Part shown: positions 10,233-17,900 of the stretch, piece after piece
Position numbering within the stretch: the first letter of the stretch is position 1
How the letters are laid out: each line of letters opens with the position of its first letter
DNA from: Candidatus Multivoradales bacterium
Lineage (GTDB): Bacteria > Acidobacteriota > Thermoanaerobaculia > Multivoradales > JAHEKO01
Length of the DNA: 64,000 nt
Direction: 5' to 3'
Assembly: GCA_965223155.1 (NCBI GenBank)
Contig: CBDCVR010000013.1
Span: forward strand, 997,538-1,061,537
Notes under the pieces: generated by a model
Database searches by the model: none
The model's input: only the letters and a program-made list of their open reading frames with translations
Told to the model about the DNA's origin: nothing
Translations under genes and position numbers: made by a program

Positions 10233-13200
10233 TTGGCTCAGCCTGTCCTCAACCTTGGCGTTCTGCGCCGGCGCCCGCACCTCAGCAGCCCAAGCGATCC
10301 CAGTGATCGCGGCGGCAAGGGCGGGCTGACCGCGCCGGAGGACGCGCCCGGAAGGGACGGCGATCTCTCCCGGCGAACCCTTCTGGGACTGGCGGGAGCG
10401 GCCACGGTCGGGCTGTCGCCGGCCGCCAGAGCGATCGAGACCGCGGCGCTAGGCCGCTACCGTCTGGAGCACGATCGGCAGCGGGCCATGTTCTCCCTGG
10501 GGACGGGCCACGTCTGGACGCTCGACGCCCGCCGCTTCGGCGGCCGGCCGTCTCTCGAGGTCGACCGAACCGGCGGCGAGGTCCGCCTGACTCTGTCCGG
10601 CGCCCTGTTCCCGGGCACCCAGATTCCGGCGGATCTGGTTTGCCGGCTTGCTCCGGGAACCCTGGCCACTCGCATGGAAATCGCGTTCGGGCTCTGCGAT
10701 CTCCGCGTGACCGCTGCCTTCGAGCCCTGGCTGGCGGGACTCGAGAAAGCCCGCGGCGTCCTGCGGCGAGCTGCGCGGGCGGAGGTCGCCGGCGACGGCT
10801 CAACCCTGGCGCTGGCGGCCCGCGGCGCCGCGACCTTCGGTCCGGATTGGATCCTGACTCTGGAAGGCACCGCGGTCGGCGAATTGGCTCTCGGCGGACC
10901 TGCTCACGAAGTTCGGCTGCCCGGAGACCGCATCGAGCTCGCTTTGCTGGCGGCCGGCACCCCCAGCTTGGTCGGCCGGCCGGCGCCGAAGCGCTGCCTG
11001 GTCACGATCGAGCGCGGCGACTCGGACTGGGATGCCGGCGTCTTGCTGCCCGCGCCCCCGGCCGGCCGGCTCGCGTGCGCGTCCGCCTCCGCCAGTCTGG
11101 TCCACGTCGAGTCCGGTTGCGATGACAACGTTTCGAAGACCGCGGCCCTCCTGGTCGAGCTTGACGCCCTGACCTTCGCGCCGGCCGCGGGCCTCGCGAC
11201 CCCGGACGGCGAGGTCTTGCAGATTCCGTTAGAAGACGTCCGCTATGGGCGCGTCCTGAGCGGCGCGGGCGCGGGAGAAGCCGCGCTATCGGCCCGTTTC
11301 GCACCTCGAGCGGTGTGGCTTGCGGCCGGCGACACCCGGCTCCAGATCGGCGGCCGATCGCGAGCGAGCGAAGAGCGCTTCGAGCTTCTGGGCACAGCCG
11401 AGGGCTTTCGCGAGATCCGGTGTCAACCCAGATTGTTCGGCATCCTGGCGCCGCTCGCCGGCGGCAGCGCCGGACTCATGAGGCCCCGAGCCGAAGCCCG
11501 GCTGGCCTTCGCCGGACTCGGCCGTCCGGGCCTACTGGCGCCGGCTGAAGCGACTGCCGGCGGCACCCAGCAGCGACGAGTCACGCCGCGGGTGATACGC
11601 CCTCAGACCCAACCCGAGGATCAAGCGACCTCGGACCGGCCCACCCTCGACGCTCGGCCGCGAGCCATGGACCGCGCCGTCTTGACGATCGCGGACGATC
11701 GTCTGACCCGCCTACGACTGCCTTCGAACCTGATTGTGTCGGTGCTCCGCTCCCGGGACTTCCTGGCCCTCGATTTCGAATTCGTCAACCTGCGGCTCGA
11801 GGCTTCGGCGCCCAGGCGGCTGGTCCGCTCGGACGCCGCCAAGCCGGCCTACGTGATCGTTCACTTCCCGCCCCAGAGCGTGTACGAGCAGGCCTTCTAT
11901 GAGGTCAGCGGATCGAGCGATGGCGTCGACTCGGACGGCAAACCCGTGCCCAGCGAGTCCGGCGGCAGCGAGCGGCTGCCGACGCCGCCGGTTCACTCAC
12001 GGCTGTCCGGACCCAGCCGTCTCTCCTTCCGGCTGCCGCGCATCGTCAACGAGCTTCCCTACACGCTCGAAGGATTGCTCGAAGCCTGCTTGACGATGCC
12101 GCTCGCCGTCGGCCGCAACGCGCGGCCCCCGGATCCACCGGTCCGCTCCGGGCAGCTCACCAGAGCCCTGGCGCTCCTGAGCGGCGCCACCGCGACGCGG
12201 GGCACGGTCGGGAGGGCCCCGGCCGGAACCGCGCGGGCGATCTCGGGCTCTCGGCGTGGAGCGGCTTCGACCGGATCGGCAGCCGCGAGGCTGAGGCAGC
12301 CCGGCAACAGGATGGACTCCACCGCCACTTCCACCGCGGCCCCGGGAGCCATCGGCCTGGTTGCCGGTCCGCCGGCCGAGCCGACGCCCGTCGAGACCGC
12401 GATCGAGATGCCCTATCGACTGATTCTGTCTCCGCACGGCAAGTCGGCCTGGTCGCATTCGGTCGACACCGGTCCGAGCCAGGAGGGCAGCGGCCGGCAC
12501 GAGCTCTGGCACACGCGTCTGGCGGTCCGCGCCGGCGACGGCTCGGCCGACGAGCGCAACCGCCACTACCGCAGCGTGCGGGCGATCTGGTCGCCGGACT
12601 ACAACGCCGCCAGGCCGCCCGACCATCAGAACCTCCCTTTCCGCTCGACCCTGGACGCGCGGGACCGGCACGAGGTCGTGGCCTTGAGCTCGGACTTCTC
12701 GATGGCCGGATGGAAGCCGCTGCCGATCGCGGTCGAGCGCCTGATGCTGACCTCCCTCGGAGCCTGGCTGGACAGCCGCGGCGCCTGGGAGCCGCCGGGG
12801 TCGCTCGAGGTCGAGGAATGGAAGCATCGCGCCACCATGGCCCGCGACCACTACGTGCGGGTCGTCTACAAGGGCTACCTCTTTCCCTTCCGCCATCGCG
12901 CGTCGCTGATCAAGGTTACCCAACGCAAATTCCAGAAGATCCAGGACGGGCCGCAAGCCGGACAGATCGCGGCCTTCCTGCGACAGCGCATGTTCATCGT
13001 GGTGCGCGAGCCCGAGCTGACCTATGACTACGCAGTGGCGAGCGGCGGCGCCCGCTGGGAACGCGAGAATCCTTTCAAGCGGGTGCGGATCACCACGCTC
13101 ACCACGCCGGACCTGCTGGATCCCAACAGCCCCGAGTGCGAGGCCGCGCCCGGCTTCGGGCAGCAAGGCTTCTGGCCCAAGACCGCAAGCGGCCGCTTCG

Positions 13201-14930: not shown

Positions 14931-17900
14931 TCGAACGGATCGTCTGGACCGTGCTTCCCAACGGCATCGCCGACGGGCATCTGCGCCTGTCGGTCTTCAT
15001 CGCGCCCCAGCTCGACCCGTCACCGCAACCGGCGAAGCTGGCCACGTTTGCCAACTGGCTGGACTGGCCGGCGGTGGTGGCGGGCCTCGAGTTTCAGGTC
15101 TCGTTCGGCTCGGCCTCCGGTACGGCGGCCACTGTTGCGGGTGTCCTCGACCCGGCCAGCTCGGCACCCGACTCGAACCTCTGGAGCCGGCTCTTCGGCG
15201 CCGACACGCCGCTTGCGGTCTTCCAGCACAAGAAGCTCGACAAGCGGGTGATCCGGTCCTTCCCCGCCGCCAACATCGTCTCGTATCTCGAGAAGCCCTA
15301 CCGGGCCTGCGCGGTTGACAGCGCGACCCGGACGCCGCCGATTCACATCCTGGCCGATCCCGACAGCGGCTTCGGCCGTATCGTGCGTCCCGAGGTGCTG
15401 CGCCGGTTCGCGGCCGTGGATCGCGACGCGGCAATGATGCGGGCCGGTTCGGCGACCGGAGCCACCGCGCGCTCTGGCGCGCGCTCAGACCCTGGGCGGA
15501 GCCGCGCCTCGGCCCGAACCGGCGGCGCGCGCCGAATCGTGGACGCCGAGACCCAGACTCGGTTGATCGCCGACCTGCGCCGGGACGTCGCCCGCGAGCT
15601 CGAGCCCAAGTTCTCAGGGCGGAAGTTCATCCGCGCGGCACCGGTGGATCCGGAAAACGACTTCCTCCAAGCCCGGCTCTTCCAGCTTCCCAAGCGGACC
15701 AAGCGGCTGCCGGACCGGATTCAGCTCCCGGACATGGATTTCCACCGCCAGCTCTCGATCCTGGGCCAGCACCCGGAACTGCTACGACGGACCGGGCTGG
15801 TCGTCGACCTCAGGATTCCCCTCAGCGGCCCCGGGGCGCCTCTGGGCCTCGCCGGCCAGGGGCAGGTATGGCTCTCTCTCGCCTCGCAACCCGCGGGCGC
15901 GGCCTGCGAGTTTCCCCGCACCGAGTACGCCTTCAACCCCGAGCTCCCCGGGGGCGCGGCCTTCCACGCCCGTCCCGGCGCCGGCAGCGACCTCGCCAAC
16001 AGGCTTCTGGCCGCCGGCGGAAAGCGTTTCGAGGTGCTCCAGATGGACGTAGACGGCGCCGCCCAGAAAGCGGTGCAGCTCGCCGACAACATCTACCGCA
16101 CGATGTCGCCCCGGCACCGAACGACGGGCTCGGCCGAAACCGTATCGATGCCGTCGCTGCGCTCGGCCGGTCTGTCCCTGGTCCGCACCGGCCGTGCCGA
16201 GCTCTTGCACACGGCCTTCATTCGGGCACGGAGTCACCGCGAGGCGATCAAGACTCGTGCCCCCGTTTCACTCTTCGCCGAGGACCTGATGCGAGGTTAC
16301 CGGGTGGACGTCTTTGACGGTTCAAACCCGGGCGGTGGTGCCTGGCGCTCGCTGTGCCGCCGGCTGGCCAGCTATACCTTGACCGACGACGATCGTCCGA
16401 TCGCGGTCCAGGACGAGGAAGGCTGGGCGGCCACGGCAACTACCGAAGCCGCAGCCGCAGAAGCCTCCGAAGAACGCGACCTCTACGTCCAGGAGTCGCT
16501 CTTCCGCTGGAGCGGTTGGAGCCTGGTCACGCCGCGACCCGGCAAGCTCCTGGACGACAAGCAGGAGGCGGCCCGCGCCCGCCACCAGCCGGGCACCGGC
16601 CTGCCCTTGCTGGTCGAAACCCGAGCGGCGCCCGGCAGCTTGCCCAAGCTTCGCTTCGGAGCCGCCTACCGGCTGCGTGCCCGCGCCGTCGACCTCGCCG
16701 GCAACAGCCTGTCGCTGGACGACGCCGACCGCCTGCCCGAGACCGTGGCCAACCAGACGGCAACCTACGCCGTCACCTACCGCCGGCACGAGGTCATCAC
16801 GCAGCCGGTTCTCCGGCTCCGCCGTACCCTCGACGACTCTGGACCGGGCGAAGGCATGGAGCGGCTGGTTCTACGATCCTTCAACAAGGGAGCGGTGCAA
16901 CCGGAGGAGCGAGTGGCGGATTCCGAGCTCTCTCCCGACCGCAACGAGCGCCACGTCGCGCCGCCGGGCACCGGTCAACTCACCGCTGAGTGTCACGGCC
17001 GCTTCGACGGTCCCCAGGGCCCGAGCCCGGCCACCTACGCCGCCATCGTCGGCCACGAGGGAGAGTTCGACCGGGACGTGTACAGCGAAGATCGTCTCGA
17101 AGTTCCTTATCTGGCAGACCCGCCGGCCCGCGGCGCGGCGTTCGTGGGATTGCCGGGCTCGAAGCCGCCGGACAACACCGTGACCCTTCATCGCGCCGAC
17201 GGCCGGGTCGAATCCTGGCGGCTGGTACCCGAGCCCAGGACCCCGGTCTCCGTGGTCCAAGTCGAGTACGGCCCCTCGCCCTGGCCCGACAACGAGCCTT
17301 TCCGGCTACGCGCGGTCGCCACGCAGACCGGCCGCGATCCGGAATGGGATCCCAACCAGCGCATCCTGACCGTCTTCGTCCGCCCGGGCGAGACGGTTCC
17401 GGTGCGCTATTCGTCCTTCCCGGCGACCGAGGACCTGGGGGCCATGGCTGCCTGGCAGTGGATCCAGGACGCCGGCCGCGTTCCCCAGCTCGAGGGCCGC
17501 GTCCTGGCCGGGCTGCATTGGATGCTCACGCCCTACCGCGAGCTGACCCTGGTCCACGCGGTCCAGAGGCCCTTGGTCAAGCCCGAGTTTCAATCGCTTG
17601 CCAGCCACCGCATCGAGGGCCAGACCAGCGCCGATCTGGAAGACCGGATCCCATTGAGCGGCAAGAGCACCTCGCGCCTGGACGTCCGGAGCCGCTGGCT
17701 GGAGCCGGTGGACGAGGGAGAGGCGCCCCGCTGGGTCGAGCGGGCGGCCCATGCCTTCGACATGACCATCGAGGCGCACGAGACCGAAGCCAAGTTCGGT
17801 CCCCACCGCAGGCTGACGCGGCTGCCGGTCCGGCAGGTTCTGGAGCGCCCGTCCCTGGCCAAAGCCGCAAAGCGCGTCGAGGCGGTGCCACCCGAGGTCC

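Follow-up and report, generated by a model that had tools for sequence, protein, structure and literature searches.

Bacteria that export folded proteins by twin-arginine translocation (Tat) can carry genes of this pathway beside those of its substrates; in Bacillus subtilis, for example, tatAd-tatCd adjoins phoD. In Campylobacter jejuni, tatA2 stands at the end of the nap operon and represents a substrate-linked tatA paralogue (PMC4148689). Tat hitchhiking, which is established for dimers and trimers, is exemplified by Escherichia coli hydrogenase-2 (HybOC), DmsAB and PaoABC, in which one subunit bears a twin-arginine (RR) signal and the adjacent, co-transcribed partner bears none (PMC4273604, PMC10924467). 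The proposed logic is that a pre-assembled, folded complex is exported. Reviews place the upper size of Tat cargo at ~150 kDa (PMC6708511). Here, we describe a pair of giant genes in a 64,000-nucleotide (nt) stretch of DNA from Candidatus Multivoradales bacterium (contig CBDCVR010000013.1, positions 997,538 to 1,061,537; hereafter, the window). The first open reading frame (ORF1) begins with a Tat-type signal, and the second (ORF2) overlaps its end and has no signal, a layout that matches that of hitchhikers, with the signal on one subunit only and an adjacent partner lacking it. We propose, with a probability of roughly 0.4, that ORF1 and ORF2 form a large complex that acts extracellularly or at the cell envelope, ORF2 being co-exported as a Tat hitchhiker.

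ORF1 (10233..14930, + strand; homologs P0001-P0010 and P0084-P0197) runs from a TTG start to a TGA stop and encodes 1565 amino acids (aa; 167.1 kDa), while ORF2 (14927..19444, +) has an ATG start and encodes 1505 aa (164.1 kDa). The original prediction had read the two genes as joined by gcATGAtc, and this is the arrangement at 14927..14930 (+), where the ORF2 ATG (14927-14929) overlaps the ORF1 TGA (14928-14930). Their calculated isoelectric points (pI) are opposed, ORF1 being acidic (5.7) and ORF2 basic (9.2). The ORF2 N-terminus, MIERIVWTVLPNG, contains neither a hydrophobic segment nor RR. The absence of a signal peptide from the second giant, also part of that prediction, extends to every homolog examined: none of 73 ORF2 homologs has a signal, and those in the genome loci show no RR or hydrophobic extension. 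These 73 homologs have a common N-terminus (..QTIIWTALPNG...LRLSVFVSPRL). ORF2 further contains FnIII-like modules, which are typical of extracytoplasmic proteins.

Scanning one genome per species recovered relatives in at least 553 species genomes, from which 80 loci were fetched, 79 of them non-duplicate (L001 and L013 are the same contig). In 75 of the 79, the gene directly 3' of the ORF1 homolog encodes an ORF2 homolog, the two being separated by no more than 30 nt or overlapping in 58 of the 75 pairs, and five further loci reached from the protein side have the same gene arrangement. The four exceptions comprise two contig ends and two solo ORF1 genes (L042 and L051). Both solo genes, from Chlorobiota-like genomes, encode a Tat-type ORF1 homolog that ends at 13579 and is followed by a 572-aa ORF other than ORF2; in these genomes ORF2 may lie elsewhere or have been lost. 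ORF1 and ORF2 are thus a nearly obligate two-gene module. The two protein families are not homologous by hhalign, and are therefore not paralogs. Even a very distant pair (L086, 8001-20554) keeps the layout, with a 2543-aa ORF1-like protein carrying an RR signal and a 1641-aa ORF2-like protein (hhalign probability 99.7%) in a 4-nt overlap. This pair is flanked by resolvase, ParB-methyltransferase and DUF3489 genes with a gene for Tae4, a type VI amidase effector, nearby, and its setting looks like a mobile element. The 2543-aa relative (P0010) had been considered as a possible ORF1-ORF2 fusion (Rosetta stone); this idea was dropped as it has its own ORF2-like partner.

The original prediction dealt with a single locus and missed this wider picture, which is of a widespread, unannotated family of paired giants whose first member ends in a domain resembling an outer-membrane beta-barrel. 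Searches of Pfam, NCBIfam, PADLOC and PHROGs with full-length ORF1 and ORF2, and profile searches of PDB sequences with both families, returned no match for either full-length protein, and literature searches found no description of the family or of a Tat-dependent barrel protein. Members occur in Actinoplanes, Streptomyces, Chloroflexota, Actinomycetota and Bacillus thuringiensis; cultured carriers include Desulforhopalus singaporensis DSM 12130, Actinoplanes cyaneus, Streptomyces species and B. thuringiensis. Two metagenome-assembled genomes (MAGs) labelled 'Nitrososphaerales archaeon' (L040) and 'Mycobacterium leprae' (L073) probably reflect binning or naming errors and were not used for taxonomic range.

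The twin arginines of ORF1 are R47-R48 (nt 10371-10376), part of an S46-R47-R48-T-L-L motif at nt 10368-10385 that is followed by G at position +5 (S46-R-R-T-L-L-G). The S-R-R-x-L-L motif, hydrophobic core and AxA site first claimed for this protein can indeed be read at residues 44-69 (DLSRRTLLGLAGAATVGLSPAARAIE), and the signal is conserved in most relatives. The predicted Tat signal peptide spans residues 1-67 (10233..10433, +), with a long n-region, the RR motif, an h-region reaching A65, then R66 and an A65-R-A67 site; residues 44-67 are DLSRRTLLGLAGAATVGLSPAARA. Both the basic R66 and the A-R-A site stand before I68. The h-region, LLGLAGAATVGL, comprises ~15 Gly/Ala-rich residues with a Kyte-Doolittle hydrophobicity of 1.91, lower than that of the Sec-type signals of three neighbouring genes (2.07-2.73). 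ORF1 therefore combines an RR consensus, a moderate h-region, a basic c-region residue, an AxA site and an N-terminal location, all of which are expected of Tat signals.

The signal depends on where ORF1 starts, and a true start 3' of the RR motif had been named as grounds for abandoning the proposal. From 10233 to the RR codons the frame contains no further ATG, GTG or TTG, and use of the next in-frame start, ATG 10488 (M86), would delete L73 and G74, which are invariant among homologs. Further, ORF1 aligns with its homologs from residue 1, (M)AQPVLNLGVLR corresponding to the family pattern M-x4-LNLxALR. A downstream start is consequently not supported, and TTG 10233 alone fits the conservation. 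A Shine-Dalgarno-like GAAGGGA, as judged from the letters, lies at 10213..10219 (+), 13 nt 5' of the TTG, a rather long spacing. One homolog had been called short, its true N-terminus lying further 5' and including both an LNLxALR-type motif and the RR motif. In the window copy this upstream motif is VLNLGVLR (family RLNLxALR; residues 5-12, 10245..10268, +). It is conserved 5' of the Tat motif and precedes RR by 33-34 aa (mode) or 21 aa in long-form relatives. RLNLxALR might serve to bind a chaperone or a partner, or might correspond to the extended signal-peptide region seen in giant Sec substrates.

Conservation across the family points to the same kind of signal. Among full-length relatives gathered by family profile, RR stands at the same position in ~92 of 107; a strict script filter picked out 77 of these, and visual inspection added 15. 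Truncated gene calls account for ~15 sequences of this protein set, several beginning inside the h-region, and ~15 are genuinely without RR. Applied to the genome loci, the script assigned a Tat signal to 50 and none to 24, and classed 6 loci as partial (50 of 74 non-partial loci), and three of the 24 negatives (L011, L041 and L066) do carry the motif on inspection. An alignment anchored on RR gives the consensus [LFV]-S-R-R-x-[LF]-[LI]-G-L-[AT]-G-x-A-A-V-G-x-x-P-x-L-[KR], which fits the pattern S/T-R-R-x-F-L-K; a Gly/Ala-rich h-region comes next, then a basic residue. Specifically, S/T occupies -1 in 95% of the family and RR is present in 100%, with L/F/M at +3, L/I at +4, G rather than K at +5, and a basic Sec-avoidance K/R at +19 in 75%. 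Several members have a textbook SRRDFLK or SRRQFLK, and a TRRKFLS version is also present. The only families matching the ORF1 N-terminus are Pfam TAT_signal (PF10518) and TIGR01409, both at the correct residues, and the TIGR01409 cut-off is passed by four orthologous N-termini (16.8-17.8 bits) from an Aminicenantes MAG, a Candidatus Spongiihabitans MAG, a Chloroflexi MAG and one doubtfully labelled MAG.

ORF1 takes four forms across the family. The window copy belongs to the first, long form, which has RLNLxALR, a Tat signal and an N-domain of ~370 aa. The second is short, with a canonical Tat signal ~45 residues before the conserved core (Aminicenantes type), and lacks RLNLxALR. The third is long and has the N-terminal motif without RR (Geobacter, Cyanobium and B. 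thuringiensis); here RLNLxALR is retained as the Geobacter-type 'RLSFEKL' or the B. thuringiensis 'ELNISFLRQ'. The fourth (~975-1050 aa) starts at the core and has no signal (Anaerolineae, Thermoanaerobaculia, Actinoplanes and other Actinomycetota). Wherever the ORF1 signal is missing, the partner too is without one. The Tat signal is frequent and occurs on different architectures, yet is not universal.

The AxA site is not conserved across the family. Left uncleaved, the RR segment might act as an N-terminal signal-anchor, in the manner of Rieske-type or other Tat-inserted membrane proteins; ORF1, either with ORF2 or by itself, would then be tethered to the cytoplasmic membrane on its outer face instead of being released. 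The family consensus beyond the h-region (P-x-L-K-A-L-G...LLGPFE) has no conserved AxA, the folded N-domain begins just ~6-10 residues past the basic residue, and Tat-dependent proteins anchored at either terminus are known (PMC10924467). The window copy, however, does have A-R-A followed by I, and an h-region of ~15 Gly/Ala-rich residues with a hydrophobicity of 1.9 is weak for a stable anchor, so that we consider permanent tethering improbable.

A separate line of evidence comes from the genes around the module. A TatA profile search of the fetched loci found tatA directly beside the module in seven genomes from ~5 lineages, in differing arrangements. In a Gemmatimonadales MAG (L054) tatA lies at 5833-6039, 20 nt 5' of ORF1, and in an unclassified MAG (L001) at 9570-9773, 228 nt 5' of ORF1. 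In an Armatimonadetes MAG (L011, 7850-8170) and a further MAG (L041, 7489-7827) it is 5' of ORF1 and within ~0.25 kb of the real start, the automatic ORF call having missed the real ORF1 N-terminus in both. In three Symbiobacteriaceae, tatA instead lies 13-19 nt 3' of ORF2 (L009, 16928-17113; L026, 16936-17112; L033, 16935-17120). All seven linked loci have a Tat-type ORF1. Chance adjacency would give a rough expectation of 0.18 across the 79 loci (P ~1e-6 for five or more). No tatC was found in any of 85 loci. Clustering of neighbouring ORFs showed tatA to be the only family common across phyla, besides generic sulfatase and ABC genes. Conserved accessory genes were accordingly dropped as a candidate, the clustering having yielded close-relative synteny, the generic genes and tatA alone, with no conserved chaperone-like neighbour. 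An anti-phage defence system was likewise dropped, as there was no PADLOC match and no defence-island context. Taken together, motif conservation, canonical variants, ortholog profile matches and tatA linkage indicate that ORF1 is very probably targeted to Tat, a judgement that pools every reading in which Tat engages ORF1, namely hitchhiking, export of ORF1 by itself and the uncleaved anchor.

The remainder of ORF1 has the appearance of a membrane-active protein. By alignment, an N-terminal domain (~residues 70-440; 10440..11552, +) is confined to long members and absent from short forms of 975-1170 aa. The core (residues 500-1355; 11730..14297, +), which begins at a VxRxxDFLxL motif, is common to every family member. 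An AlphaFold2 model of residues 500-1565 (me20ec3816b7e; 80 sequences; predicted local distance difference test score, pLDDT, 84.8; predicted template modelling score, pTM, 0.71) is almost all beta, including this core. It is followed by a C-terminal Gly-rich domain (residues 1356-1539; 14298..14849, +), predicted to form ~13 long amphipathic strands in the manner of an outer-membrane beta-barrel. These strands reach 18 residues, one face being strongly hydrophobic and the other polar or Gly-rich. Directly before the ORF2 start is a conserved C-terminal segment ending ...W..YCEAFA(A) (14871..14927, +), helical in the model, in which W1556, Y1559, C1560, A1562, F1563 and A1564 are invariant in the alignment. 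When the C-terminal domain was searched against 1.84 billion cluster representatives, all 3259 matches (clusters at 50% identity) were C-terminal in proteins of this family. One signal-less long form, P0155 from a Geobacter metallireducens MAG (UniRef A0A831UDK2), carries the UniRef name 'Outer membrane channel', which is in line with the barrel-like prediction; no other member of the family has an informative name from any source.

On the predicted fold, the C-terminal domain may engage lipid, and the module is probably membrane-active. A classical autotransporter or outer-membrane protein was considered and rejected: the signal is Tat-type rather than Sec, the C-terminus is a helix (...EYCEAFAA) without a beta-signal, and the family occurs in monoderms. 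For these reasons ORF1 was not filed as an outer-membrane protein. The B. thuringiensis homolog, together with the distant pair that sits near a Tae4 gene in what looks like a mobile element, hints weakly at a competitive or toxin-like function.

We infer the following sequence of events. ORF1 would be made with its N-terminal twin-arginine signal and delivered folded to the Tat translocase, for which the tatA beside the module, possibly an extra copy, would in some lineages supply the pore-forming subunit. ORF2, translationally coupled and signal-less, would most likely bind ORF1 in the cytoplasm and cross the membrane with it. Outside, the barrel-like amphipathic beta domain of ORF1 would be the part likeliest to engage a lipid membrane, which could belong to a target cell or be the outer membrane of the host itself. 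Co-export is the most economical reading because ORF2 is obligate, translationally coupled, charge-complementary and signal-less, and has FnIII-like modules. Opposite pI and obligate pairing are only suggestive as a sign that the complex forms before export.

Alternatively, ORF1 could be a genuine Tat substrate that travels alone, leaving ORF2 in the cytoplasm, where it could help ORF1 to fold or hold it with its hydrophobic beta domain shielded until export, or could have a separate role. All of the Tat evidence for ORF1 counts equally here, and ORF1 by itself is already at the published size limit; ORF2 never carries a signal, and in signal-less modules it is presumably cytoplasmic. A dedicated chaperone of 164 kDa would nevertheless be extraordinary, and ORF2 is conserved as much as ORF1 and possesses FnIII-like modules. 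The obligate 1:1 coupling and opposite charge also suggest a stoichiometric complex, and if the pair shares a compartment in signal-less lineages, it is simplest to assume that it does so in Tat lineages. Solitary export of ORF1 is, in our view, somewhat unlikely.

Several observations weigh against co-export of the pair through Tat. The RR of the window copy is reached only at residue 47, after an unusually long n-region of 46 residues, and its profile scores fall short for both Pfam TAT_signal (13.5-15.9 bits against a cut-off of 22.7) and TIGR01409 (13.1 bits against 16.7). Neither tatA nor tatC was found in the 64-kb window by tblastn and hidden Markov model (HMM) searches. In about a third of relatives (~24 of 74 genome loci), ORF1 and ORF2 both lack a signal, these being short forms in Anaerolineae, Thermoanaerobaculia and Actinomycetota and a long Geobacter/Cyanobium-type form. 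The module can therefore function without Tat, export by this route is no inherent property of it, and ORF2 does not have to leave the cytoplasm. The original prediction had drawn an analogy with hydrogenase and DmsAB. Its gene layout matches, whereas family searches and neighbour clustering found no cofactor-binding domain in ORF1 or ORF2 and no chaperone of the redox enzyme maturation protein (REMP) type. The same prediction had called export of a complex of >3000 residues unusual, and the sizes bear this out: ORF1 (~160 kDa when mature) and the pair (~325 kDa) both exceed the ~150 kDa limit, the pair being about twice the largest known Tat cargo. Moreover, we know of no precedent for a pre-folded barrel-like domain passing through Tat. 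We hold co-export at only ~0.4 because we infer the interaction, because ORF1 alone is at the size limit, because signal-less modules exist, and because features of cofactor binding or dedicated chaperones are lacking.

Some of these observations could be taken further, to mean that neither protein is exported and that the RR segment, Tat-like by composition only, is a conserved motif with a structural or interaction role in a giant complex of the cytoplasm. The sub-threshold scores of the window copy on both profiles and the position of RR as far in as residue 47 are consistent with this, as are the many relatives without the RR segment and the separate RLNLxALR motif that precedes it and persists in forms without RR. 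Such a motif would not readily account for canonical SRRxFLK signals, acquired independently or as variants, on long and short forms alike, for tatA adjacent in five lineages, for the conserved Sec-avoidance K/R, or for a predicted domain resembling a membrane barrel. We therefore regard a purely cytoplasmic complex as very unlikely.

The window has a G+C content of 65-72%. Directly 5' of ORF1 and on the same strand are two paralogous Sec-signal proteins (7208-9262 and 9297-10196, +), which have in common a near-identical Cys-containing domain of ~150 aa (with the sequence …GVYLPDQxVPALRVRSQGGNWWEMIPAGSHSVCY…); the larger has this domain in two copies and a long Pro/Thr-rich linker. The paralogs (7208-10196) have no family match and are not kept beside the pair in other genomes. 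On the 3' side are a secreted protein without a family match (19522-20427, -) and a DUF4332 and CarboxypepD_reg protein (20522-21556, +), followed by a TonB-type receptor (CarboxypepD_reg and Plug) at 23607-26573 (+), which identifies the host as a diderm bacterium. These three downstream genes do not accompany the module elsewhere. High G+C commonly produces long antisense ORFs as artefacts, and those seen here, for example at 11997-14084 (-), were set aside as such.

The pair defines a large family without Pfam or NCBIfam annotation, whose predicted folds look membrane-active. The module would represent a natural substrate of ~160 kDa, possibly with an equally large passenger. Being linked to its own tatA in several phyla, it provides a direct test case for how the TatA assembly scales with cargo size. 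A more ambitious proposal is that a pre-assembled ~325 kDa heterodimer is exported folded via Tat with a module-encoded extra TatA, carrying a ready-made barrel-like insertion domain. We think this unlikely, although if true it would raise the known size limit of Tat cargo about twofold and represent a new route by which a protein that forms pores or channels reaches the outer membrane or a target cell.

The systems that most resemble this module each match only part of it. Known hitchhikers are cofactor-containing redox enzymes that total ~150 kDa or less and have dedicated maturation chaperones, whereas the pair described here has no recognisable cofactor domain or chaperone, amounts to ~165 kDa per partner and also exists in signal-less versions. 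The substrate-linked TatA paralogues of C. jejuni and B. subtilis are similar in placing a tatA-family gene in or beside the operon of a Tat substrate; the present module differs in having tatA without tatC, in its uncharacterised giant substrate, and in recurring across unrelated phyla in differing gene orders.

Type V secretion systems, both autotransporters and two-partner systems, also involve very large proteins with an N-terminal extension before the signal proper. Autotransporters have a C-terminal domain of the beta-barrel kind, and two-partner systems place a barrel protein and a giant partner side by side. They nonetheless use Sec signals and the beta-barrel assembly machinery (BAM), end in a terminal aromatic beta-signal and are restricted to diderms, whereas ORF1 has a Tat-type signal and a helical end (...CEAFAA), and its family extends to Actinomycetota, Chloroflexota and Bacillus. 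Tat-dependent tail- and N-anchored proteins are likewise large and globular, with a Tat signal and a C-terminal region that is hydrophobic (PMC10924467). The tail-anchored ones have a single C-terminal transmembrane helix, while ORF1 has a beta domain of ~190 residues and then a soluble helix. Large multi-component toxins that act on membranes, such as Tc toxins, are encoded by adjacent genes for proteins of at least 150 kDa, one with a membrane-engaging element. Here the analogy is functional only: adjacent giants, some signal-less family members, the mobile-element pair near Tae4 and the B. thuringiensis homolog all recall such toxins, and neither the sequences nor the folds of ORF1 and ORF2 showed similarity to Tc, RHS or MACPF components.

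Tat signals, hitchhiking and substrate-linked tatA genes are thus already known. What is new is a widespread, unannotated family of paired giants, the size of the proposed cargo, the presence of a Tat signal and a membrane-barrel-like domain in one protein, the recurrent linkage to tatA, and a conserved RLNLxALR motif at a fixed distance 5' of the RR pair. The pair may be the largest cargo yet proposed for Tat.

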